A DNA stretch of 64,000 nucleotides, taken from the sequence record OR062946.1; one strand, given 5' to 3'. The stretch is from Escherichia phage 310Ecol104PP. The notes beneath the pieces were generated by a model. The model saw nothing but the letters and a program-made list of their open reading frames with translations, did not search any database and had not been told where the DNA came from. How positions within the stretch are numbered: the first letter of the stretch is position 1; the number at the start of each line of letters is the position of its first letter. Positions 1,462 through 34,894 of the stretch are shown here, one piece after another. The translations under genes and the position numbers were made by a program.

Positions 1462-4400
1462 CAGTAAAAGCACCTTCAGTCACTAGTCTCAGAATTTCCA
1501 AGTTATCCGCAAATCAGGTGCAAGTACGCTGGGATGACGTTGGTGCTAATTTCTACTATTTTGTAGAAATCGCTGAGACAAAAACAAACTCGGGGGAAAA
1601 TCTCCCGAGTGATCAATATCGTTGGATTAATTTAGGGTATACAGCAAATAATAGTTTCTTTTTTGATGATGCTGATCCACTAACATCATACATCATTAGA
1701 GTAGCTACAGCTGTACAAGATTTTGAGCAATCTGATTGGGTTTATACAGAAGAGTTTGAAACTTTTGCTACGAATGCTTACACATTTCAAAACATGATTG
1801 AAATGCAATTAGCCAATAAATTCATTCAGGAAAAATTTACTCTTAACAATTCTAATTATGTCAATTTTAATAATGACACTATAATGGCTGCATTGATGAA
1901 TGAATCGTTTCAATTCAGCCCATCATATGTTGATGTTTCATCAATCAGTAATTTTATTATTGGTGAAAATGAGTATCATGAAATACAAGGTTCTATTCAG
2001 CAAGTATGTAAGGATATTAACCGAGTTTATTTGATGGAATCAGAAGGGATTCTATATCTTTTTGAGCGCTATCAACCCGTAGTTAAAGTATCCAATGATA
2101 AAGGACAAACCTGGAAAGCTGTAAAGCTCTTCAATGACCGCGTAGGATATCCTTTATCTAAGACTGTATATTACCAATCTGCGAACACAACATACGTTCT
2201 AGGATACGACAAGGTCTTCTATGGCCGTAAATCTACTGATGTTAGATGGTCAGCTGATGATGTCAGATTTAGTTCACAGGATATAACATTTGCTAAATTA
2301 GGAGACCAACTTCATTTAGGATTCGATGTTGAAATCTTCGCTACTTATGCTACTTTACCAGCGAATGTATATCGCATTGCAGAAGCTATTACTTGCACCG
2401 ATGATTACATTTACGTTGTCGCCAGAGACAAAGTTAGATACATAAAAACGAGTAATGCACCTATAGATTCTGATCCATTATCTCCAACATATTCGGAAAG
2501 ACTTTTTGAACCTGATACCATGACTATAACTGGAAATCCTAAAGCAGTATGCTATAAAATGGATTCTATCGGTGATAAAGTTTTTGCTCTTATTATTGGT
2601 GAAGTTGAAACATTAAATGCTAATCCTAGAACATCAAAAATAATTGATTCCGCTGATAAAGGAATATATGTTTTAAATCATGACGAAAAAACATGGAAAA
2701 GAGTTTTTGGTAATACCGAAGAAGAAAGAAGACGTATTCAACCCGGATATGCGAATATGTCAACTGACGGTAAATTAGTTTCTCTATCATCGAGTAATTT
2801 TAAATTTTTAAGTGATAATGTTGTTAATGACCCTGAAACTACAGCAAAATATCAGTTAATCGGTGCTGTTAAATATGAATTTCCTCGTGAATGGTTAGCT
2901 GATAAGCATTATCATATGATGGCATTTATAGCAGATGAAAAGTCTGATTGGGAAACTTTTACTCCTCAGCCGATGAAATACTATGCAGAACCATTCTTTA
3001 ACTGGTCTAAAAAATCTAACACACGTTGTTGGATAAACAACTCTGATAGGGTTGTAGTAGTTTATGCTGATTTAAAATACACTAAAGTTATAGAAAATAT
3101 TCCGGAAACATCACCAGATAGATTAGTTCATGAATACTGGGACGATGGCGATTGCACTATAGTAATGCCAAATGTTAAATTCACTGGATTTAAAAAATAT
3201 GCATCTGGGATGCTTTTCTATAAAGCCTCTGGTGAAATAATTTCTTACTATGATTTTAACTATCGTGTTAGAGACACTGTCGAAATTATTTGGAAGCCAA
3301 CTGAAGTATTTTTAAAAGCATTTTTACAAAACCAAGAGCATGAAACTCCTTGGTCGCCTGAAGAAGAGCGTGGATTAGCTGACCCTGATTTAAGACCATT
3401 GATTGGCACAATGATGCCTGATTCTTATTTGTTACAGGATTCGAATTTTGAGGCATTTTGCGAAGCATATATTCAATATCTTTCTGATGGATATGGAACT
3501 CAGTATAACAATTTACGAAATTTAATTCGTAACAAATATCCACGAGAAGAGCATGCATGGGAATATTTGTGGTCAGAGATATATAAAAGAAACATTTATT
3601 TAAATGCTGACAAACGTGATGCTGTTACAAGATTTTTCGAATCACGTAGCTATGATTTTTATTCTACTAAAGGAATTGAAGCATCATATAAATTTCTTTT
3701 TAAAGTTCTTTATAATGAAGAAGTTGAAATTGAAATTGAATCTGGGGCTGGTACTGAATATGATATAATCGTTCAATCTGATTCTTTGACTGAAGACTTA
3801 GTAGGACAAACGATTTATACAGCTACAGGAAGATGTAATGTTACTTATATAGAAAGAAGTTATTCTAACGGTAAATTGCAATGGACCGTAACTATTCATA
3901 ATCTTTTGGGAAGATTAATTGCCGGTCAAGAAGTTAAAGCAGAAAGACTCCCTAGTTTTGAAGGCGAAATTATTCGCGGGGTTAAAGGGAAGGATTTGCT
4001 TCAAAATAATATAGACTATATTAATAGAAGTCGATCATATTATGTAATGAAAATTAAATCCAATTTACCTTCTTCCCGCTGGAAATCTGACGTTATTCGT
4101 TTTGTTCATCCAGTAGGATTTGGATTTATAGCAATTACTCTTTTAACAATGTTTATTAATGTTGGTTTAACTCTTAAACATACAGAGACTATAATTAATA
4201 AATACAAAAACTATAAATGGGATTCTGGATTGCCTACTGAATATGCTGATAGAGTAGCTAAATTAACTCCAGCTGGTGAAATTGAACATGATCCAGTAAC
4301 AGGCGAAGCAATTTATGAACCTGGTCCAAAGGCTGGTGTAAAATATCCTCTTCCTGATGACTATAATGCTGAAAATAATAATTCAATATTTCAAGGTCAA

Positions 4401-4556: not shown

Positions 4557-5553
4557 TTCAAGTGTTATCTATCGTGCGATAGTTACTTCAAAATTTAGAA
4601 CAGAAAAAATGTTGAATTTTTATAATTCAATTGGAAGTGGTCCGGATAAAAACACTATCTTTATCACATTTGGAAGATCAGAACCGTGGTCATCAAATGA
4701 AAATGAGGCGGGCTTTGCCCCGCCTTATCCCACTGATTCTGTATTAGGTGTAACTGACATGTGGACGCATATGATGGGAACCGTGAAGGTTCTTCCATCT
4801 ATGCTTGATGCAGTTATTCCTCGTCGAGATTGGGGAGATACTCGATATCCTGATCCATACACATTTAGAATTAATGACATTGTAGTGTGTAACTCAGCTC
4901 CTTACAACGCTACTGAATCAGGCGCAGGCTGGTTAGTATATCGTTGTTTAGATGTTCCTGATACCGGAATGTGTTCAATCGCATCTTTAACTGATAAAGA
5001 TGAATGCCTTAAGTTAGGTGGAAAATGGACTCCTTCTGCTAGGTCAATGACTCCTCCTGAAGGTCGAGGAGACGCGGAAGGAACAATTGAACCTGGAGAC
5101 GGATATGTTTGGGAATATCTTTTTGAGATTCCGCCTGATGTGTCTATAAATAGATGCACGAATGAATATATCGTGGTTCCTTGGCCTGAGGAATTAAAAG
5201 AAGACCCGACTAGATGGGGATATGAAGATAATCTCACATGGCAGCAAGATGATTTTGGATTAATTTACCGGGTTAAGGCAAATACTATTCGTTTTAAAGC
5301 ATATTTAGATTCAGTTTATTTTCCTGAAGCTGCATTGCCGGGAAATAAAGGATTTAGACAAATATCAATAATCACGAATCCTCTTGAAGCTAAAGCTCAT
5401 CCAAATGACCCAAACGTTAAAGCTGAAAAGGATTATTATGATCCGGAAGATTTAATGAGGCATTCGGGCGAAATGATTTATATGGAAAATAGGCCACCTA
5501 TTATCATGGCAATGGATCAAACAGAAGAAATCAATATTCTGTTTACATTTTAA
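4549..5553 (+). CDS. 8: baseplate wedge protein gp8
   Basis: 334 aa, T4 gp8 length; synteny; followed by hairpin terminator. Confidence 0.9.
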   Translation: MNDSSVIYRAIVTSKFRTEKMLNFYNSIGSGPDKNTIFITFGRSEPWSSNENEAGFAPPYPTDSVLGVTDMWTHMMGTVKVLPSMLDAVIPRRDWGDTRYPDPYTFRINDIVVCNSAPYNATESGAGWLVYRCLDVPDTGMCSIASLTDKDECLKLGGKWTPSARSMTPPEGRGDAEGTIEPGDGYVWEYLFEIPPDVSINRCTNEYIVVPWPEELKEDPTRWGYEDNLTWQQDDFGLIYRVKANTIRFKAYLDSVYFPEAALPGNKGFRQISIITNPLEAKAHPNDPNVKAEKDYYDPEDLMRHSGEMIYMENRPPIIMAMDQTEEINILFTF

Positions 5554-23308: not shown

Positions 23309-24874
23309 ATGACTATCAAAACTAAAGCTGAACTTTTGAACAAATGGAAGCCATTACTGGAAGGTGAAGGTTTACCGGAAATTGCTAATAGCAAACAAGC
23401 GATTATCGCTAAAATCTTTGAAAACCAGGAAAAAGATTTCCAGACAGCTCCAGAGTACAAAGACGAAAAAATTGCTCAGGCATTTGGTTCTTTCTTAACA
23501 GAAGCTGAAATCGGCGGTGACCACGGTTACAATGCTACTAACATCGCCGCAGGTCAGACTTCTGGCGCAGTAACTCAGATTGGCCCAGCTGTTATGGGTA
23601 TGGTACGTCGTGCTATTCCTAACCTGATTGCTTTCGATATTTGCGGTGTTCAGCCGATGAACAGCCCGACTGGCCAGGTATTCGCACTGCGCGCAGTATA
23701 TGGTAAAGACCCAATCGCTTCCGGTGCTAAAGAAGCATTCCACCCAATGTATGGTCCAGATGCAATGTTCTCTGGTCAGGGTGCTGCTAAGAAATTCACA
23801 GCTCTGGCTGCTAGCACACAAACTACAGTAGGTGATATCTATACTCACTTCTTCCAGGACACTGGTACTGTGTATCTGCAGGCTTCTGCTCAAGTAACAA
23901 TTAGTTCTACTGCAGATGATGCAGCTAAATTAGATGCTGAAATTAAGAAACAAATGGAAGCTGGTGTACTGGTAGAAATCGCTGAAGGTATGGCTACTTC
24001 TGTCGCTGAACTTCAGGAAAGTTTCAACGGTTCTACCGATAACCCATGGAATGAAATGGGCTTCCGTATCGATAAACAAGTTATCGAAGCTAAATCTCGT
24101 CAGCTGAAAGCTGCTTACTCTATCGAATTAGCACAAGACCTCCGCGCTGTTCACGGTATGGATGCTGATGCTGAACTGTCTGGTATTCTGGCTACCGAAA
24201 TCATGCTGGAAATTAACCGTGAAGTTGTTGATTGGATTAACTACTCAGCTCAGGTTGGTAAATCTGGTATGACCCTGACTCCGGGTTCTAAAGCTGGTGT
24301 ATTTGACTTCCAGGATCCGATTGATATTCGTGGTGCTCGCTGGGCGGGTGAATCCTTTAAAGCTCTGTTGTTCCAGATTGACAAAGAAGCAGTTGAAATT
24401 GCTCGTCAGACTGGTCGTGGTGAAGGTAACTTCATTATCGCTTCCCGTAACGTAGTTAACGTTCTGGCTTCAGTTGATACCGGCATTTCTTATGCTGCAC
24501 AGGGTCTGGCTACCGGCTTTAACACTGATACTACCAAGTCAGTATTTGCTGGTGTTCTGGGTGGTAAATACCGTGTATATATCGACCAGTATGCTAAACA
24601 GGATTATTTCACTGTAGGTTATAAAGGTCCGAACGAAATGGATGCTGGTATTTACTATGCTCCATATGTAGCTCTGACTCCGCTGCGCGGTTCCGATCCG
24701 AAGAACTTCCAACCAGTAATGGGATTCAAAACTCGTTACGGTATCGGTATCAACCCATTTGCAGAATCCGCTGCTCAGGCTCCGGCTTCTCGCATTCAAA
24801 GCGGTATGCCTTCTATTCTGAATAGCCTTGGTAAAAACGCTTACTTCCGCCGTGTATATGTTAAAGGTATCTAA
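23309..24874 (+). CDS. 23: major capsid protein gp23
   Basis: 521 aa, T4 gp23 length; codon usage typical of a highly expressed gene; followed by a strong hairpin terminator. Confidence 0.95.
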   Translation: MTIKTKAELLNKWKPLLEGEGLPEIANSKQAIIAKIFENQEKDFQTAPEYKDEKIAQAFGSFLTEAEIGGDHGYNATNIAAGQTSGAVTQIGPAVMGMVRRAIPNLIAFDICGVQPMNSPTGQVFALRAVYGKDPIASGAKEAFHPMYGPDAMFSGQGAAKKFTALAASTQTTVGDIYTHFFQDTGTVYLQASAQVTISSTADDAAKLDAEIKKQMEAGVLVEIAEGMATSVAELQESFNGSTDNPWNEMGFRIDKQVIEAKSRQLKAAYSIELAQDLRAVHGMDADAELSGILATEIMLEINREVVDWINYSAQVGKSGMTLTPGSKAGVFDFQDPIDIRGARWAGESFKALLFQIDKEAVEIARQTGRGEGNFIIASRNVVNVLASVDTGISYAAQGLATGFNTDTTKSVFAGVLGGKYRVYIDQYAKQDYFTVGYKGPNEMDAGIYYAPYVALTPLRGSDPKNFQPVMGFKTRYGIGINPFAESAAQAPASRIQSGMPSILNSLGKNAYFRRVYVKGI

Positions 24875-24889
24875 GATATAACCTTATTA

Positions 24890-24920
24890 TGGGAGACTTC
24901 GGTCTCCCATTCTTGTTTCT
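24890..24920 (+). terminator. intrinsic terminator after gene 23
   Basis: TGGGAGAC-TTCG-GTCTCCCA hairpin followed by TTCTTGTTTCT. Confidence 0.8.
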
Positions 24921-24970
24921 ATACTACGCAATCTTAACTCGACGGTTGATGATATCACGGAAGTCAATAC

Positions 24971-24998
24971 GATTTTCTTGGATTTTCTTGGATTTTCA
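24971..24998. repeat. tandem direct repeat GATTTTCTTG, two full copies plus a partial third
   Basis: gattttcttggattttcttggattttca read directly; lies just 3' of the 64-aa minus-strand ORF. Confidence 0.8.
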
Positions 24999-25190
24999 GC
25001 CAGTTACCAGATTTGTCTTTGGTATGGGTAGAATATTCACCATTCCACCAGAAGTCAGTATGGTTTCATATTTCTTAACTAACGCATTCACTGCATTACC
25101 GTTAGGATTGGAACCATATTTTTCTACCAGGGCTTTAATGTCTTTATCAAGAGCGGAAAGAGTAGTACGAATAAAGTTTAACTTGTTCAT
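24996..25190 (-). CDS. hypothetical 64-aa protein, antisense to the late head genes, in the gene 23-24 intergenic region
   Basis: ATG preceded by GAGGAG at 6-nt spacing; GTTTAC-N18-TACTAT early-type promoter further upstream on the minus strand. Confidence 0.55.
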   Translation of the reverse strand: MNKLNFIRTTLSALDKDIKALVEKYGSNPNGNAVNALVKKYETILTSGGMVNILPIPKTNLVTG

Positions 25191-25219
25191 TTTAATCTCC
25201 TCATGTTTTTGATAGGTCT

Positions 25220-25249
25220 ATAGTAACATGTGATAACCTTGCTGTAAAC
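25220..25249 (-). promoter_or_regulatory. early-type promoter for the 64-aa antisense ORF
   Basis: Minus-strand GTTTAC - 18 nt - TACTAT. Confidence 0.4.
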
Positions 25250-25255
25250 AACTTT

Positions 25256-25263
25256 TATAAATA
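25256..25263 (+). promoter_or_regulatory. late promoter for gene 24
   Basis: Exact TATAAATA about 28 nt upstream of the ATG. Confidence 0.7.
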
Positions 25264-25291
25264 AACATATACCCTCAATAAGGAAAGCGCA

Positions 25292-26575
25292 ATGGCTAAA
25301 ATCAACGAACTTTTGCGCGAATCAACCACAACGAATAGCAACTCAATCGGTCGCCCAAATCTCGTTGCTTTGACTCGCGCTACCACTAAATTAATATATT
25401 CTGACATTGTAGCAACGCAAAGAACTAATCAACCTGTTGCTGCTTTTTATGGTATCAAATACCTTAACCCAGATAACGAATTTACATTTAAAACTGGTGC
25501 TACTTACGCTGGCGAAGCTGGGTACGTAGACCGAGAACAAATCACAGAATTAACAGAAGAGTCTAAATTAACTCTCAATAAAGGCGATTTATTCAAATAT
25601 AATAATATCGTTTATAAAGTATTAGAAGATACACCATTTGCTGATATTGAAGAAAGCGATTTAGAATTAGCTCTTCAGATTGCAATTGTTCTTTTAAAGG
25701 TTCGTCTATTTTCTGATGCTGCAGTAACAAGCAAATTTGAAAACTCTGATAGCGAAATTGCGGATGCTAGATTCCAGATTAATAAATGGCAAACCGCAGT
25801 TAAATCTCGTAAACTTAAAACTGGCATTACAGTTGAATTAGCACAAGATTTAGAAGCAAATGGATTCGATGCTCCTAATTTCTTGGAAGATTTGCTTGCA
25901 ACTGAAATGGCAGATGAAATCAATAAAGATATTCTGCAATCTTTGATTACAGTATCAAAACGCTATAAAGTTACAGGAATTACTGATAGTGGATTCATCG
26001 ATTTGAGTTATGCATCTGCTCCTGAAGCTGGTCGTTCATTATACCGAATGGTATGTGAAATGGTTTCGCATATCCAAAAAGAATCAACTTATACAGCAAC
26101 GTTCTGTGTTGCTTCTGCTCGTGCCGCTGCGATTCTTGCTGCATCAGGTTGGTTAAAACATAAACCAGAAGATGACAAATATCTTTCGCAAAATGCCTAT
26201 GGGTTCTTAGCTAATGGTTTACCGCTTTATTGCGATACTAACAGCCCATTAGATTATGTAATCGTTGGCGTAGTAGAAAATATTGGTGAAAAAGAAATTG
26301 TCGGATCAATTTTCTATGCTCCGTATACAGAAGGTCTTGACTTAGATGACCCTGAACATGTAGGTGCATTTAAAGTTGTAGTTGATCCAGAAAGCTTACA
26401 ACCATCTATCGGTTTATTGGTTAGATATGCTTTATCTGCAAATCCTTACACTGTAGCAAAAGATGAAAAAGAAGCAAGAATAATTGATGGTGGAGACATG
26501 GATAAAATGGCGGGTCGTTCAGATTTGTCTGTTTTATTAGGTGTTAAATTACCAAAAATTATCGTTGATGAATAA
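25292..26575 (+). CDS. 24: capsid vertex protein gp24
   Basis: 427 aa, T4 gp24 length; TATAAATA about 30 nt upstream. Confidence 0.95.
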   Translation: MAKINELLRESTTTNSNSIGRPNLVALTRATTKLIYSDIVATQRTNQPVAAFYGIKYLNPDNEFTFKTGATYAGEAGYVDREQITELTEESKLTLNKGDLFKYNNIVYKVLEDTPFADIEESDLELALQIAIVLLKVRLFSDAAVTSKFENSDSEIADARFQINKWQTAVKSRKLKTGITVELAQDLEANGFDAPNFLEDLLATEMADEINKDILQSLITVSKRYKVTGITDSGFIDLSYASAPEAGRSLYRMVCEMVSHIQKESTYTATFCVASARAAAILAASGWLKHKPEDDKYLSQNAYGFLANGLPLYCDTNSPLDYVIVGVVENIGEKEIVGSIFYAPYTEGLDLDDPEHVGAFKVVVDPESLQPSIGLLVRYALSANPYTVAKDEKEARIIDGGDMDKMAGRSDLSVLLGVKLPKIIVDE

Positions 26576-26578
26576 AAC

Positions 26579-26606
26579 AAAGGGACCGAAAGGTCCCTTT
26601 TTATTT
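26579..26606. terminator. bidirectional terminator between gene 24 and rnlB
   Basis: AAAGGGACC-GAAA-GGTCCCTTT with T-runs on both strands. Confidence 0.8.
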
Positions 26607-27609
26607 AACTTACCAGTTCAATCCAAGCCGGACGAAGTACATCTTGTACCATTTTAACTAATTCCTTTTTAATCAAAGAAGGATTATCCGCTTGAGTTAG
26701 AGTAATACCTTCACGAGAAGTTTCTTCCAAAATATCTTGAACAGTTAGTCCCATCACCTTTCCAAAATCTTTTGGACCAATTTCGCCAATTTTAGAAATA
26801 ACGTTATTTACTCGGTTCAGTGTAACGTAGCAAGCTAAAATTCCCAGCAATTTATTATCAGCTTCTGACAGTTCAACTTTAGCTTTAATAGGCTTATCAG
26901 ACTTTTTCTTTTCGCTAAATTTAGAGTTCTTGCATTTAATAGCTACACGATTGCCATTAGGCATCCAAGAAGGATAACAAGGTTTCAATACATATCCTTC
27001 AGCAGTAAATACTTCGCCTTTTGCTTCGGCATTCCAAACGCATTTATTTGCATCAACTAATCCAGCATGGTCTACTGTAAAATTATAATCCTGGACGACA
27101 GAATCTAAATCATTTGGCAATTTAATAAGCTCTTCAAATTTACCGCGACCTAAAAGTGGAGCCATTTTAAATTTGAATGTATTACAGAATGATTCCAACA
27201 TATAATCATCGACATAAGTCACATCACCACTTTCGGTAGTAACAATAATGTCAAATACATAAAAATCTTTATCACCATAATCAACATTCTTCTGAATGCC
27301 AGGTCCAGCGAATTCGCCAAAGACTTGATAAGATACAACTGCCGAAGTTTCCATAATATCTTGTACTGCTTTAATGGAATCAGCGTAATTCTTTAGAATA
27401 ATTTCATACCCAAAGAAATCTTCAGCAGGAAGAATCGGTCCAGTACGTTTAGCACAAGTTGCTTTATCGCGTTCAATAATCAGTGAGAAATTTGTGCCAT
27501 GAATCTTTTCACGAGCTACCCATTCGCCGCCAGTCAATCCTAAGCTGTAAAGTTTTTCAATGAATTTAGAATTATAATGATTTTCAAGACTGCTATACTT
27601 TTTAAACAT
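26605..27609 (-). CDS. rnlB: RNA ligase 2 (Rnl2)
   Basis: 334 aa; N-terminus [21 protein letters not shown] and nucleotidyltransferase lysine motif KIHGTN. Confidence 0.95.
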
Positions 27610-28187: not shown

Positions 28188-29606
28188 TTATGGATAGGTA
28201 TAGATGATACCAGTTTCTAAAGCAGTTTTATGAATGATGTATCCATTACGCGATTCTTGAACATCAACTTCTGGATAGTCTTTCATCATCTTCTGAAGAG
28301 TGTAACGATGCAGGTAGTATTTACTATCTGGATCTTCAGTTTTCCAATCTTTACCTTCTTCAGTCATTTTTTGGATTTCATCCATAACCCACCAACCGCA
28401 CCAGATGTAAGCTGAGCTACGGTGTGGAAGAGGATGAACATAAGGTAATTCACCTTCTGGTTCTGGAGCAACTTTATCAGTTACCTGAACTTGACCTGTT
28501 GTTTTAACTGTTTTGCTATCATAATCAGTTGCTGTAACGACAGCAGTAACTTCAATAGTTTGACTTCCAACAGATGAAGTATCAACGGTGTATACATTAG
28601 TTGACCCTTCTACAGGAGAAGAATCTTTCTTCCATGAATATTCAATTTGCGCTTCTTCTGGAGCACCAGTAACATTAGCAGTAAATGTAGCCGAAGCATC
28701 TTGTTGAACGTTAATAGAAGGAGGAGTCAATGTAACCTGTGGATTCATTGTCTTCTTATTAACCGTTAATGATACTTCATTCGAAGTAACTTCCTTTTCA
28801 TTGTAATTTTCTGCAGTTACTTGGGCTACGCATTTAATTCTTTTTACTCCACTTGTAGTTGGAGTATAGCTAAATGTAGAGTTAGTTTCTCCACTAATTT
28901 GAGAATCATCTACATACCATTTATATGTAGCAGACGCTCCATCAGGTTGAGAAACTAAAGCAGCAGTAAATTGAACCGGGGTTCCAATTACTCCTGCTGG
29001 AGGACTATCAGGAGTTACTGCCAAAGTAGTTGTCTGCTCCTTTTTATTAACAGTCAGTGATACTTCATTAGAAGTAACGCTTAGTGCATCATAATCTGTC
29101 GCGGTTACTTGAGCTACACACTTAATTTTTTTAACTCCGCTTGTGGCAGGAGTGTAATTGAATGTAGCGCTAGTTGCTTCGTCCACAGGAGAACCGTCAA
29201 CGTACCATTGATACGTAGCAGATGCACCTGATGGCTGTGAAGCTAAAGCGGCAGTAAATTCAATAGCTGTTCCGATTACTCCAGCATCAGGGCTACCAGG
29301 AGTTACGGCTAAAGTAGTTGTTTGTGTCTTATTTTGAATTGTGATAGTTGTACTAATTTCAGCTGTTTCGGGACTACTATCGGCAACTTGATTTGTTGCA
29401 ACTACTTTAATAGTCTTTTGACCGGCAGGTCCTTTTAGTACATAACTAAAAGTTGCTGACGTTTCTTCCTGTTGAACATTATCTACAGTCCAAGCATATG
29501 TAATAGGTCCATCTCCAGTTTGACCACTGGGTGTAGCAGTAAACTGCTGAGTCTGATCTATAACTCCAGTAGGTGTTTTAGGAGTTATATCAACTGTAAA
29601 AGTCAT
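28188..29606 (-). CDS. hoc: Hoc outer capsid decoration protein, 472 aa, with an extra Ig-like domain
   Basis: N-terminus MTFTVDITPKTPTGVID and C-terminal capsid-binding region; two adjacent ~96-aa repeats in the middle; hairpin terminator just downstream. Confidence 0.9.
   Translation of the reverse strand: MTFTVDITPKTPTGVIDQTQQFTATPSGQTGDGPITYAWTVDNVQQEETSATFSYVLKGPAGQKTIKVVATNQVADSSPETAEISTTITIQNKTQTTTLAVTPGSPDAGVIGTAIEFTAALASQPSGASATYQWYVDGSPVDEATSATFNYTPATSGVKKIKCVAQVTATDYDALSVTSNEVSLTVNKKEQTTTLAVTPDSPPAGVIGTPVQFTAALVSQPDGASATYKWYVDDSQISGETNSTFSYTPTTSGVKRIKCVAQVTAENYNEKEVTSNEVSLTVNKKTMNPQVTLTPPSINVQQDASATFTANVTGAPEEAQIEYSWKKDSSPVEGSTNVYTVDTSSVGSQTIEVTAVVTATDYDSKTVKTTGQVQVTDKVAPEPEGELPYVHPLPHRSSAYIWCGWWVMDEIQKMTEEGKDWKTEDPDSKYYLHRYTLQKMMKDYPEVDVQESRNGYIIHKTALETGIIYTYP
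28755..29330 (-). repeat. tandem duplication (2 x ~288 bp) inside hoc encoding two adjacent Ig-like domains
   Basis: Residues ~93-188 and ~189-284 align end to end (KTQTTTLAVTPGSPDAGVIGT... vs KEQTTTLAVTPDSPPAGVIGT...). Confidence 0.8.
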
Positions 29607-30317: not shown

Positions 30318-30346
30318 TAGATATATTTATTACATGGTATTTAGAC

Positions 30347-31858
30347 ATGACTGACATTAAAGTACATTTTTATGATTTTAGTCACGTGAGAATTGATTGT
30401 GAAGAAAGTACATTTCATGAACTCCGTGATTTCTTTAGCTTTGAAGCTGATGGGTATCGTTTTAATCCGAAATACAAATATGGTCACTGGGATGGACGAA
30501 TCCGTCTTTTAGATTATAATCGTCTTCTTCCATTTGGCTTAGTCGGGCAAATTAAAAAGTTCTGTGATAACTTTGGCTATAAAGCCTGGATTGACCCGCA
30601 AATTAACGAAAAAGAAGAATTATCAAGAAAAGATTTTGATGAATGGCTTTCTAAATTAGAAATCTATTCAGGAAATAAAAGAATTGAACCGCATTGGTAT
30701 CAAAAAGATGCAGTGTTCGAAGGATTAGTTAATCGTCGTAGAATTCTTAATCTTCCAACATCCGCTGGTAAATCTTTAATTCAAGCTTTGCTTGCGCGAT
30801 ATTATTTGGAAAATTATGAAGGTAAAATTCTTATCATTGTTCCAACAACTGCTCTGACAACTCAGATGGCTGATGACTTTGTTGACTATCGTTTATTCAG
30901 TCATGCAATGATAAAGAAAATTGGTGGCGGAGCATCAAAAGATGATAAATATAAAAATGATGCACCAGTCGTTGTTGGTACATGGCAAACTGTAGTTAAA
31001 CAACCGAAAGAATGGTTCTCACAGTTTGGAATGATGATGAATGATGAATGCCATCTTGCTACAGGAAAAAGTATTTCATCTATCATATCAGGTTTAAATA
31101 ACTGCATGTTCAAATTCGGTTTGTCTGGTTCATTACGTGATGGCAAAGCCAATATCATGCAGTATGTTGGAATGTTTGGTGAAATATTTAAGCCAGTAAC
31201 GACTTCTAAATTAATGGAAGATGGACAAGTAACTGAGCTAAAAATTAATAGTATTTTTCTTCGCTATCCCGATGAGTTCACTACTAAATTAAAGGGAAAA
31301 ACTTACCAAGAAGAAATAAAAATTATTACTGGGCTCAGTAAAAGAAATAAATGGATCGCTAAATTAGCTATTAAGCTTGCGCAAAAAGATGAAAACGCTT
31401 TTGTCATGTTTAAACATGTATCGCATGGTAAAGCTATTTTCGATTTAATTAAAAATGAGTACGATAAAGTTTATTACGTATCAGGGGAAGTTGATACCGA
31501 AACCCGCAATATAATGAAAACCTTAGCTGAAAATGGTAAAGGAATAATTATAGTAGCTAGTTATGGTGTATTTTCTACTGGTATTTCAGTTAAAAATCTG
31601 CATCACGTTGTTTTAGCGCACGGTGTTAAATCAAAAATCATTGTATTACAAACAATCGGTCGTGTATTACGTAAGCATGGTTCTAAAACAATCGCAACAG
31701 TCTGGGACCTCATAGATGATTGTGGCGTTAAGCCAAAATCTGCTAATACGAAAAAGAAATATGTTCATTTGAACTATCTTTTAAAACACGGCATTGATCG
31801 TATTCAGCGCTACGCAGATGAAAAATTTAATTACGTAATGAAAACAGTTAATTTATAA
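30347..31858 (+). CDS. uvsW: UvsW DNA/RNA helicase
   Basis: 503 aa; helicase motifs PTSAGKS and DECH; TATAAATA about 30 nt upstream. Confidence 0.95.
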   Translation: MTDIKVHFYDFSHVRIDCEESTFHELRDFFSFEADGYRFNPKYKYGHWDGRIRLLDYNRLLPFGLVGQIKKFCDNFGYKAWIDPQINEKEELSRKDFDEWLSKLEIYSGNKRIEPHWYQKDAVFEGLVNRRRILNLPTSAGKSLIQALLARYYLENYEGKILIIVPTTALTTQMADDFVDYRLFSHAMIKKIGGGASKDDKYKNDAPVVVGTWQTVVKQPKEWFSQFGMMMNDECHLATGKSISSIISGLNNCMFKFGLSGSLRDGKANIMQYVGMFGEIFKPVTTSKLMEDGQVTELKINSIFLRYPDEFTTKLKGKTYQEEIKIITGLSKRNKWIAKLAIKLAQKDENAFVMFKHVSHGKAIFDLIKNEYDKVYYVSGEVDTETRNIMKTLAENGKGIIIVASYGVFSTGISVKNLHHVVLAHGVKSKIIVLQTIGRVLRKHGSKTIATVWDLIDDCGVKPKSANTKKKYVHLNYLLKHGIDRIQRYADEKFNYVMKTVNL

Positions 31859-31874
31859 GGGCTTCGGCCCTTTG
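31858..31874 (+). terminator. hairpin after uvsW
   Basis: AGGGC-TTCG-GCCCT followed by a short T-run; weak. Confidence 0.4.
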
Positions 31875-31883
31875 GAGAAAAAG

Positions 31884-32114
31884 ATGTTACTAGAATTTAA
31901 ACAATTTCTTTATGAAGCTTCTATTGATGAATTTATGGGTAAAATTGCCTCTTGTCAAACATTAGAAGGTTTAGAAGAACTTGAAGCTTATTATAAGAAA
32001 AGAGTTAAAGAAACTGAATTAAAAGATACTGATGACATCTCTGTGAGAGATGCTTTGGCAGGAAAAAGAGCTGAATTAGAAGATTCAGACGATGAAGTAG
32101 AAGAAAGCTTTTAA
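31884..32114 (+). CDS. uvsW.1: UvsW.1 small acidic protein
   Basis: Start set to the ATG at 31884 (MLLEFKQF) with GGAG upstream; the track ORF begins at a non-ATG codon at 31872. Confidence 0.75.
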   Translation: MLLEFKQFLYEASIDEFMGKIASCQTLEGLEELEAYYKKRVKETELKDTDDISVRDALAGKRAELEDSDDEVEESF

Positions 32115-32169
32115 ATTAAAAAAGGCCCAACCAAAAAGGAAGGGCCAAAACTATAGACTAAAGGTCACA

Positions 32170-32337
32170 CTATAGCAAAAGTTGTGTTTCATTTAATTGT
32201 TCTTCCGAACTTTCTGAAACTGGTAGTTCTTTAATGTAATTATAGCAAGGCCCAGGATGTACAGGACCTTTGTCTGTTTCAACAACCAATGCAGAATCGA
32301 TTGGAGTTTTACAGACAACACAAATCTTATCTGACAT
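32170..32337 (-). CDS. hypothetical 55-aa cysteine-containing protein (T4 uvsY.-2-like position), not in the ORF track
   Basis: Hand translation MSDKICVVCKTPIDSALVVETDKGPVHPGPCYNYIKELP...; GAGGAG Shine-Dalgarno upstream; below the 60-aa track cutoff. Confidence 0.55.
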   Translation of the reverse strand: MSDKICVVCKTPIDSALVVETDKGPVHPGPCYNYIKELPVSESSEEQLNETQLLL

Positions 32338-33468: not shown

Positions 33469-34094
33469 TATAGTAACTCAAAGAACTCTTTGAGGCCTCT
33501 TATTACGTGAGCATGGGTTTTTCCACACTCTGGACACTTAATTGGAACAGCCAAATAAACAGTAGGCTTTAAAAGCATATCTTTTATAGCTACAATATCT
33601 GACTCTGTGATGATAGAATATAAATCTTCCAGTTCCTTTTCATTTAAGTCTTCAACTGGAATGCTTTCCCCGTTAGCATGAATCGTTTCTATGCATGATA
33701 CTATCATGTGGGCTATATTTTTATCATCAAAAATTTTAGGGTAATGGAACTTAATTTTAATGTCACCCAGTGTATACCAGAGGTCTTCTGGTGTATCTAT
33801 TTGTGTATGTAATAGATTTATATGGGTTGGTATTTCAGTTCCACAGGTGCACTTCCAGGAGTTTTCGTGATTAACTTCTCCAAGAGAATGTGCCCATAAA
33901 TGAATCAGCAGTAGTTCTGATTCTTGGCGGTTTAAATCTTTTGCATTTGTACAGTCTTTAATTAGCTTTTTAACGATCTCTTCTACTGAACCGTTCTTTT
34001 TAGCAGTAATAAGTTCTAGATATTCTTTAAGAGTAAATGCGCGACAGTTGATTATTTTAGAACCAACTCTCACATCAAATTTGTATTCATACAT
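33468..34094 (-). CDS. 26: baseplate hub protein gp26
   Basis: 208 aa, T4 gp26 length; divergent from gene 51. Confidence 0.85.
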
Positions 34095-34115
34095 ATTTAG
34101 CTCCTTTATTTATCA

Positions 34116-34127
34116 TATTTATAAATA
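34116..34127. promoter_or_regulatory. overlapping divergent late promoters for gene 26 (minus) and gene 51 (plus)
   Basis: Plus-strand TATTTATAAATA contains TATAAATA in both orientations. Confidence 0.6.
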
Positions 34128-34144
34128 GAATAAAAGGAGCATCT

Positions 34145-34894
34145 ATGGCAAACATTATTCGTTGTAAATTACCAGATGGTGTTCATCGTTTTAAACCATT
34201 TACGGTAGAAGATTATCGAGATTTTTTGTTAGTTCGAAACGATATAGAACATCGGTCACCACAAGAACAAAAAGAAATAATTGCTGATTTAATTGCTGAT
34301 TATTTTGGAGACTATCCGAAGACTTGGCAACCATTTATATTTTTGCAGGTATTTGTAGGGTCAATAGGTAAAACTAAAGTACCAGTCACATTTGTGTGTC
34401 CAAAATGTAAAAAAGAAAAGACAGTTCCATTTGAAATATATCAAAAAGAATTAAAGGAACCTGTTTTTGATGTAGCTAATGTTAAAATTAAATTAAAGTT
34501 TCCTTCTGAGTTTTATGAAAATAAAGCAAAGATGATTACTGAAAATATTCATTCTGTTCAAGTAGATGAAATGTGGTATGATTGGAAGGAAATTAGCGAG
34601 TCCAGTCAAATAGAACTCGTTGACGCCATCGAGATAGAAACATTAGAAAAAATTCTCGATGCAATGAATCCTATTAATTTAACTCTACATATGTCATGCT
34701 GTAATAAGTACATTAAAAAATACACTGATATAGTAGACGTGTTTAAGCTATTAGTTAACCCAGATGAGATATTTACTTTTTATCAAATTAATCACACACT
34801 CGTAAAAAGCAATTATAGCTTAAATTCAATAATGAAAATGATTCCTGCTGAGCGCGGATTCGTATTAAAACTGATTGAGAAGGATAAACAATAA
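34145..34894 (+). CDS. 51: baseplate hub assembly catalyst gp51
   Basis: 249 aa, T4 gp51 length; late promoter upstream. Confidence 0.85.

Follow-up and report, generated by a model that had tools for sequence, protein, structure and literature searches.

The spacer between gene 23, which encodes the major capsid protein, and gene 24 in the genome of Escherichia phage 310Ecol104PP raises the question of what a small open reading frame (ORF) on the minus strand, accompanied by a tandemly repeated decamer, represents. The phage (OR062946) is a member of Tequatrovirus isolated from wastewater in Poland (PMC11510089). A preliminary description made from the DNA alone took the ORF for a small antisense gene, and suggested that it could be an early gene or a remnant of an excised element. 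We analyzed the spacer in the context of the window, namely the whole stretch of 64,000 nucleotides in which the spacer resides, and compared it with the corresponding loci of related phages. We conclude that the locus harbors a broken member of a protein family that is catalogued but uncharacterised, and the initial observation is real but ordinary. The locus is unrelated to segD, is not an RNA element, and offers no evidence for a recoding site.

Organization of the gene 23-gene 24 spacer

The spacer spans positions 24875-25291 (417 bp, as defined by the sequence and the ORF list) and indeed contains the 64-aa minus-strand ORF and the GAGGAG Shine-Dalgarno sequence that had been described (Table 1). 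From left to right, the terminator of gene 23, the antisense gene, its ribosome-binding site (RBS), its promoter, and the late promoter of gene 24 are arranged in this order. The two promoters are placed back to back on opposite strands, only six bases apart from each other. The consensus of the late promoter is established knowledge in T4.

Table 1. Coordinates of the features in and around the gene 23-gene 24 spacer.
Feature	Position	Strand	Basis or remark
Gene 23 (major capsid)	23309-24874	+	TAA stop at 24872-24874
Cassette attributed to horizontal exchange (terminator, small gene, promoters)	24872..25260		Sliding identity, 100-nt windows
Intrinsic terminator of gene 23	24889..24910	+	ATGGGAGAC-TTCG-GTCTCCCAT then TCTTGTTTCT; terminator scan
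Ancestral 88-codon frame (JS98 orf173 / PHROG 6003 family)	24924..25190	-	Interrupted; alignment to JS98, G28, and IME08, and translation
Decamer repeat GATTTTCTTG, x2.7	24971..24997		TRF; copies 100% identical
64-aa ORF	24996..25190	-	ORF list; TGA stop at 24996-24998
Junction of the 10-bp deletion	25059..25060		Alignment, list of indels against G28, and reconstruction
Shine-Dalgarno GAGGAG	25197..25202 (25202->25197)	-	6 nt 5' of ATG
Putative sigma-70 early-type promoter of the small gene	25220..25249	-	Scan; -35 GTTTACA 25249->25243, -10 TACTAT 25225->25220
T4-type late promoter of gene 24, TATAAATA	25256..25263	+	Sequence; kept in all spacer types
RBS of gene 24, AAGGAAAG	25280-25287		Sequence
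Gene 24	25292-26575	+	ATG at 25292
rnlB	26605-27609	-	ORF list

The terminator of gene 23 folds into a hairpin with a UUCG loop (-15.2 kcal/mol, z = -3.7 by RNA folding), which is also marked as a terminator in the annotation of G28 and is kept in the T4-like phages of Enterobacter, Serratia, and Erwinia. As the tail of the hairpin on the minus strand is AUAAUAAGG, the terminator is weaker for the antisense gene. The search of the spacer against Rfam gave no match except a sub-threshold one at this hairpin. The stretch around the terminator (24886-24922) has a counterpart of 35-37 bp in the distant phages of Enterobacter, Serratia, and Erwinia mentioned above with 97-100% identity, while the rest of the spacer found no match there. 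A 107-aa ORF on the plus strand (24889..25212) was rejected as an antisense shadow, as all of the substitutions are synonymous in the minus frame.

The 64-aa ORF as a truncated allele

When the junction of genes 23 and 24 was aligned to those of the relatives, an 88-codon ORF and 1.7 copies of the decamer were found at the corresponding positions in JS98 and G28. The 64-aa ORF is not annotated in T4. It is annotated in 310Ecol104PP, and over 200 genomes in addition to JS98 carry annotations of the full-length gene. Three differences from the relatives were recognized in the alignment with JS98, G28, and IME08 and in the list of gaps against G28, namely a 10-bp deletion, a 10-bp duplication, and a single nucleotide in the T-run between the RBS and ATG (6 nt in the window versus 7 nt in the relatives). 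The window copy and JS98 orf173/G28_00177 share position, strand, promoter, RBS, and terminator, and the DNA sequences are 96-100% identical apart from the indels. On the other hand, the window allele is distinguished by the 10-bp deletion and the 10-bp duplication, and by an ORF of 64 aa versus 88 aa in the intact homologues.

The translation of 24924-25190 comprises, in order, MNKL...KKYET, ILTSGGMVNILPIPKTNLVTG followed by a stop, KSK, and KIQENRIDFRDIINRRVKIA followed by a second stop. The 64-aa ORF consists of the 5' 43 codons of the 88-codon gene and 21 out-of-frame codons. Residues 1-43, which cover helix 1 and the greater part of helix 2, keep the conserved sequence of the family and are identical to those of G28, while residues 44-64 are missense due to the frameshift. 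Consistently, phrog_6003 matched the window ORF only over residues 1-44 (E = 4.7e-20), and matched the repaired form or the G28 form over residues 1-88 (E = 5.8e-50). The window copy resembles the family in the profile similarity and in synteny, being antisense between genes 23 and 24 and downstream of a divergent promoter, but it lacks the intact ORF of 84-93 codons with an alpha-alpha-beta-beta-alpha fold, as the frame is shifted at codon 44 and stops at codon 65. Judging from these comparisons, we regard the window copy as a disrupted allele of PHROG 6003, effectively a pseudogene and not a functional member. The interpretation as a small antisense gene in the preliminary description holds insofar as the ORF is derived from a real protein-coding gene, but the gene is not intact.

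Six point differences were found between the window and G28, and all of them are synonymous in the ancestral frame, including two (codons 53 and 79) downstream of the frameshift. That the six substitutions are all synonymous in the old frame shows that the break is recent, and the gene was therefore under selection in this frame until very recently.

The 64-aa protein is identical to WLY86363.1, a hypothetical protein of 310Ecol104PP, which is the sole member of its own cluster among ~15 billion proteins. The contig lookup for this protein returned no recorded contig encoding it. We suggest that the annotation of this 'hypothetical protein' of 64 aa mark it as a fragment of a JS98 orf173 family member, generated by a frameshift.

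The truncated product has lost the fold elements past helix 2, namely the beta-hairpin and the C-terminal helix, and is most likely inactive. In the AF2 model of the 64-mer, the helical hairpin is kept and the tail is disordered. The two-helix hairpin is predicted with confidence, so that partial activity could be retained. In favor of a functional, shortened protein, of which N-terminal helical hairpin would carry the old activity or a new one, the start codon, RBS, and promoter are intact, and residues 3-47 were modeled as a helical hairpin with a pLDDT of 80-89 even from the single sequence. The conserved NGNA loop (residues 30-33) is kept as well. Nevertheless, the shortened protein lacks W51, Q71, I80, the whole beta-hairpin, and helix 3, bears a new tail of 21 residues predicted to be disordered, and forms the single-member cluster described above. 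The synonymous-only change past the break shows that selection still acted on the lost part in the recent past, and the 237 records of the family with single-piece coverage of at least 80% (see below) argue against comparable truncations in the middle of the gene. We thus consider a functional shortened protein unlikely.

The family of JS98 orf173, G28_00177, and PHROG 6003

The members of the family are 88-93 aa in length and annotated as hypothetical proteins (JS98 orf173 is AAU29301.2). The family was detected by tblastn in 237 phage records belonging to Dhakavirus, Gaprivervirus, Mosigvirus, and, in a few cases, Tequatrovirus. Identity to the query was at least 90% in 86 records (Dhakavirus and a few Tequatrovirus among those sampled), 60-80% in 32 records (Gaprivervirus), and below 60% in 119 records (Mosigvirus). 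In each of the 237 records, a single aligned piece covers 80% or more of the 88-aa query. The gene is antisense between genes 23 and 24 in every locus examined, i.e., those of JS98, G28, IME08, Shf125875, VR26, and mogra. Pairwise dN/dS values among the alleles ranged from 0.03 to 0.13, and the family is therefore under strong purifying selection.

The intact protein is a basic protein of 88 aa (10.3 kDa, pI 9.6), and the conserved residues of the family are the NGNA loop (30-33), W51, Q71, and I80. The AF2 model of the intact protein, which was built with 10 sequences, showed a helix-helix-beta-hairpin-helix arrangement (alpha-alpha-beta-beta-alpha) with a pLDDT of 92. The fold search with this model found no informative match, and none of the matches of the 88-aa protein in Pfam, NCBIfam, and the PDB sequences was significant or passed the cutoff. 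The profile search against 1.84 billion representatives retrieved only 10 proteins, which were family members and spurious repeat proteins. Our best guess is that the intact protein may be an accessory protein made early, which the phage can do without and which acts on some component of the host.

The gene has been broken on another occasion. In Mosigvirus mogra (MN850579.1; positions 488-756 of locus L023), a natural frameshift was found in the gene of the same family residing in the gene 23-gene 24 slot. One nucleotide was lost from an A5 run at approximately codon 23, unlike the 10-bp indels in the window, and the mogra gene belongs to a different subfamily with ~37% identity. The split allele of the mogra type, which comprises ORFs of 38 and 51 aa, was found in 8 contigs including metagenome assemblies. 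Furthermore, some Dhakaviruses lack the small gene altogether. The independent frameshift in mogra and the absence of the gene in some Dhakaviruses argue that the gene is dispensable, and this comparison supports conditional dispensability. Altogether, we see here an orphan gene that is strongly constrained where it is intact, and yet has been inactivated independently at least two times and is absent from many relatives. The combination of constraint with recurrent inactivation or absence leads us to propose a conditionally useful accessory gene, and this small gene is a reasonable candidate for screens related to host interaction or defence.

Two 10-bp indels and the decamer repeat

The 10-bp deletion, found relative to all of the relatives, lies between 25059 and 25060 in codon 44. 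The lost sequence is AGCATAAGCC on the plus strand, corresponding to GGCTTATGCT on the strand of the gene, and 1-nt microhomology is associated with it. The deletion is followed by the 21 out-of-frame codons and then TGA (24996-24998). Relative to the conserved N-W-L-K codons, this TGA is in the -1 frame, and all of the relatives have it; the duplication could therefore never reopen the frame. In fact, the duplication brings back the ancestral frame one codon past the premature TGA and leaves the terminated product unchanged.

The decamer repeat is located 3' of the ORF on the minus strand and overlaps its stop codon. Its copy number is 1.7 in the relatives and 2.7 in the window, and one of the units (e.g., 24971-24980) is a tandem duplication. 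The repeat occurs nowhere else in the window, and 0 matches were found in the shuffles. GATTTTC-N3-GATTTTC, a repeat with a 10-nt period of the kind on which replication commonly slips, already exists in the ancestral sequence. No intact allele departs from 1.7 copies, because gaining or losing 10 bp at this place would throw the gene out of frame. No RNA or regulatory signature of the repeat was detected (fold z = -1.4 for the region). The repeat reported in the preliminary description is thus present, but not as a separate element; the comparison with the relatives identifies it as a 10-bp slippage duplication inside a dead gene. It has no regulatory role, and the tandem decamer should not be counted as a regulatory repeat.

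Is either of the indels, or are both of them, an artefact of sequencing or assembly, leaving the gene of the actual phage intact at 88 codons? The variant was seen in one genome only, both indels are absent from IMG/VR, the triple decamer was found in metagenomes only in 5 contigs, all of which are unrelated microsatellites, and assemblers can miscount short tandem repeats. The GenBank protein record gives no check on the duplication, since the duplication follows the stop codon. Yet the 10-bp deletion occurred in non-repetitive sequence, where such an error is atypical, and the tail derived from the deletion is independently present in WLY86363.1. General sloppiness of the assembly was rejected as well, as ~46 kb of the flanking sequence aligned to G28 contained no other indel larger than 3 bp and all of the large genes are intact. 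Consequently, an artefact is very unlikely in our assessment.

The two indels are equal and opposite in size and 79 nt apart from each other. The equality is probably a coincidence, although a match of -10 and +10 has, by a rough estimate, an a priori chance of roughly 5-10%, and a linked event or past selection may be behind it. A more elaborate possibility is a compensated frameshift, in which UGA at 24996-24998 would be read through or otherwise recoded; the resulting protein of 88 aa would have its middle segment of 24 residues replaced and the C-terminal helix restored. The exact restoration of the ancestral frame one codon past the TGA agrees with this possibility, which would also spare us the coincidence in size, and of the E. 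coli stop codons, UGA is the one most prone to read-through. What makes it extremely improbable is that the TGA was already in that frame in all of the ancestors and that, once the deletion is there, the terminated product is the same with or without the duplication. Besides, the predicted beta-hairpin would not survive the replacement of the segment, neither a slippery site nor a stimulatory structure was evident (see the z value above), and the arrangement is unique to this genome and is not kept in the relatives.

Promoter of the antisense gene

The promoter described initially as GTTTAC-N18-TACTAT is the same site as that recovered in our scan, TTTACA-17-TACTAT with a TGn extended -10 (25248->25220 on the minus strand; 9/12 matches). 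An AT-rich region lies upstream of this site, and the start is predicted near 25213. As a bare pattern, the promoter is not above chance, as 2 sites were found against 2.2 expected in the shuffles. However, the -35 element and TAnnAT exactly 17 nt downstream are kept in JS98 (Dhakavirus), VR26 (Gaprivervirus), and Shf125875 (Mosigvirus), while the spacer between the two elements has diverged. We regard the conservation of the same spacing in four diverged lineages as the real evidence for the promoter.

The early promoters of T4 are of the UP/-35/TGn/-10 architecture (PMC2988021), and the antisense promoter fits this class in the -35-like hexamer, the spacer of 16-18 nt, the TGn, and the -10 of TAnnnT. 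The MotA box, of which consensus is (a/t)(a/t)(a/t)TGCTTtA, is located 12 +/- 1 bp upstream of -10 (PMC2988021). No MotA box was found 12 bp from the -10 of the antisense promoter, where the sequence is ...TTTACAGCAAG... without TGCTT. We infer the timing of the small gene and even its translation; the promoter would be used early by the unmodified host RNA polymerase. The idea that the ORF is an early gene running against late genes is thus reasonable for the family, in which the sigma-70 early-type promoter is kept across genera, but the 64-aa ORF itself is broken. The small gene is similar to the small, non-essential early proteins of T4 (PMC2988021) in the promoter architecture, small size, dispensability, and polymorphism between related phages, but differs from them in residing inside the cluster of late structural genes instead of early regions.

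The same promoter arrangement was found upstream of segD in T4-type phages. In T4 (NC_000866), TTTACA-17-TATTAT with TGn lies immediately upstream of segD on the minus strand at about 107,281->107,253 (5282..5254 of locus L007). This promoter-like site has a 10/12 match, the best in the region, and its position matches that of the promoter of the small gene in the window. Edgell et al. (2010) already noted the antisense orientation of segD relative to genes 23 and 24, and reported that bioinformatic searches gave no segD-specific promoter (PMC2988022). The good sigma-70 match directly upstream of T4 segD is a small discrepancy with that review, and our literature search found no T4 transcriptome paper mentioning segD.

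Polymorphism of the slot and horizontal exchange

The slot between genes 23 and 24 is polymorphic in content. It is empty (83 bp) in the Tequatroviruses of the Shfl2 type, which are the majority, and ~119 bp in some Dhakaviruses. As stated in the preliminary description, T4 carries segD on the minus strand in this slot, while IME08 and many Dhakaviruses carry the small gene and segD placed 3 nt downstream of it. RPN226 (OL770073.2) possesses a 503-aa ORF on the minus strand (1617-3128 of locus L006) with weak matches to REase_MTES_1575, the Vsr endonuclease domains, and a Mom-family region, suggesting that its product is possibly another free-standing nuclease. In the examples examined, all of the cargo genes are on the minus strand.

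The product of T4 segD (NP_049788.2) is a free-standing GIY-YIG endonuclease of 223 aa. The gene shares the slot and the antisense orientation with the small gene, and its promoter-like site (TTTACA-17-TAnnAT with TGn) is also back to back with the late promoter of gene 24. Nevertheless, no similarity in sequence or domain was found between segD and the window ORF, which has neither a GIY-YIG motif nor a Pfam match.

It was suspected that the spacer is a remnant of an excised element, and one version of this idea is a scar of an excised segD-type element, with the repeat marking excision or target-site duplication. The presence of segD in the same slot in T4 and many Dhakaviruses, including IME08 in which it lies 3 nt downstream of the homologous ORF, would fit this idea, and insertions of mobile elements can be flanked by short direct repeats. 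Against this idea, the spacer aligned end to end with those of JS98 and G28, which are devoid of segD, and tblastn with the T4 and IME08 SegD sequences found nothing in the spacer or in the whole 64-kb window (E > 1). The segD gene of IME08 has the terminator on one side and the stop codon of the ORF on the other, at a place that corresponds to a position near 24923 in the window and is 48 bp away from the repeat. The repeat is inside the conserved coding sequence, and the segD-less JS98 and G28 already have 1.7 copies of it. To our knowledge, free-standing GIY-YIG endonucleases make no target-site duplications. Altogether, we assign a probability close to nil to a scar of this kind.

The analysis in 100-nt windows revealed that the identity between the window and JS98 is 95-100% from 24872 to 25260, versus 58-92% in the flanking gene 23 and 53-85% in gene 24. 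The whole spacer is ~93% identical, with gaps counted, to those of JS98 and the Tequatroviruses G28, KIT06, W143, EP01, GEP001, JE01, and HZ_ZJUN4. The high identity of the cassette against the diverged flanking genes indicates that the whole intergenic module was exchanged horizontally between two genera, Dhakavirus and Tequatrovirus, and its sharp boundaries coincide with the ends of the head genes.

Proposed history of the locus

We find it highly probable that a cassette of the JS98 type resides in the gene 23-gene 24 spacer of this Tequatrovirus, that its small gene was recently broken by the 10-bp deletion, and that the repeat arose by slippage. The cassette consists of the terminator of gene 23, the small antisense accessory gene, its RBS and sigma-70 early-type promoter, and the late promoter of gene 24. 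The intact protein would be made early, from the gap between the terminator and the late promoter, thereby avoiding collision with the late transcription of the head genes. This gap would be the only stretch in the head-gene cluster that late transcription largely skips, which would account for the tolerance of antisense cargo at this place. The deletion of 10 bp in codon 44 would have occurred first, shifting the frame into the TGA and leaving a null or truncated allele, i.e., a dead gene. The slippage from 1.7 to 2.7 copies would have come second; the repeat expansion would not have been removed by selection, because the gene was already dead and the expansion was neutral. We regard this order of the two events as the most likely one.

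A broader reading, to which we give a low but appreciable probability, has two independent parts. The first is that the gene 23-gene 24 gap may be a conserved, insulated 'expression dock', with the terminator on one side and the early-type promoter back to back with the late promoter of gene 24 on the other, of which cargo (the PHROG 6003 gene, segD, and the nuclease-like ORF of 503 aa) may have been swapped between genera. The second is that loss of the PHROG 6003 gene by the double hit may have been selected for, e.g., because it lets the phage evade a host defence system by which the protein is sensed, or that the -10 and +10 indels may be one linked mutational event. The matched indels, the recurrent loss of a constrained gene, and the promoter-equipped slot with interchangeable cargo are the residual curiosities of the locus.

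Other differences in the surrounding regions

Two GIY-YIG/homing-endonuclease genes flank uvsW in G28 (31657-32274 and 33782-34474 of locus L021), and both are absent from the window (30333-30353 and 31841-31843), where the alignment skips them. Gene 24 is present as two paralogues in tandem (24a and 24b) downstream of the small gene in Dhakavirus and Gaprivervirus members (JS98, IME08, and VR26), while the window has a single gene 24 as T4 does. Finally, a 288-bp tandem repeat of 2.0 copies with 75% identity was found at 28752-29321. Its position relative to G28 suggests that it lies in the hoc-like 'PKD domain protein' gene and represents duplicated Ig-like domains.
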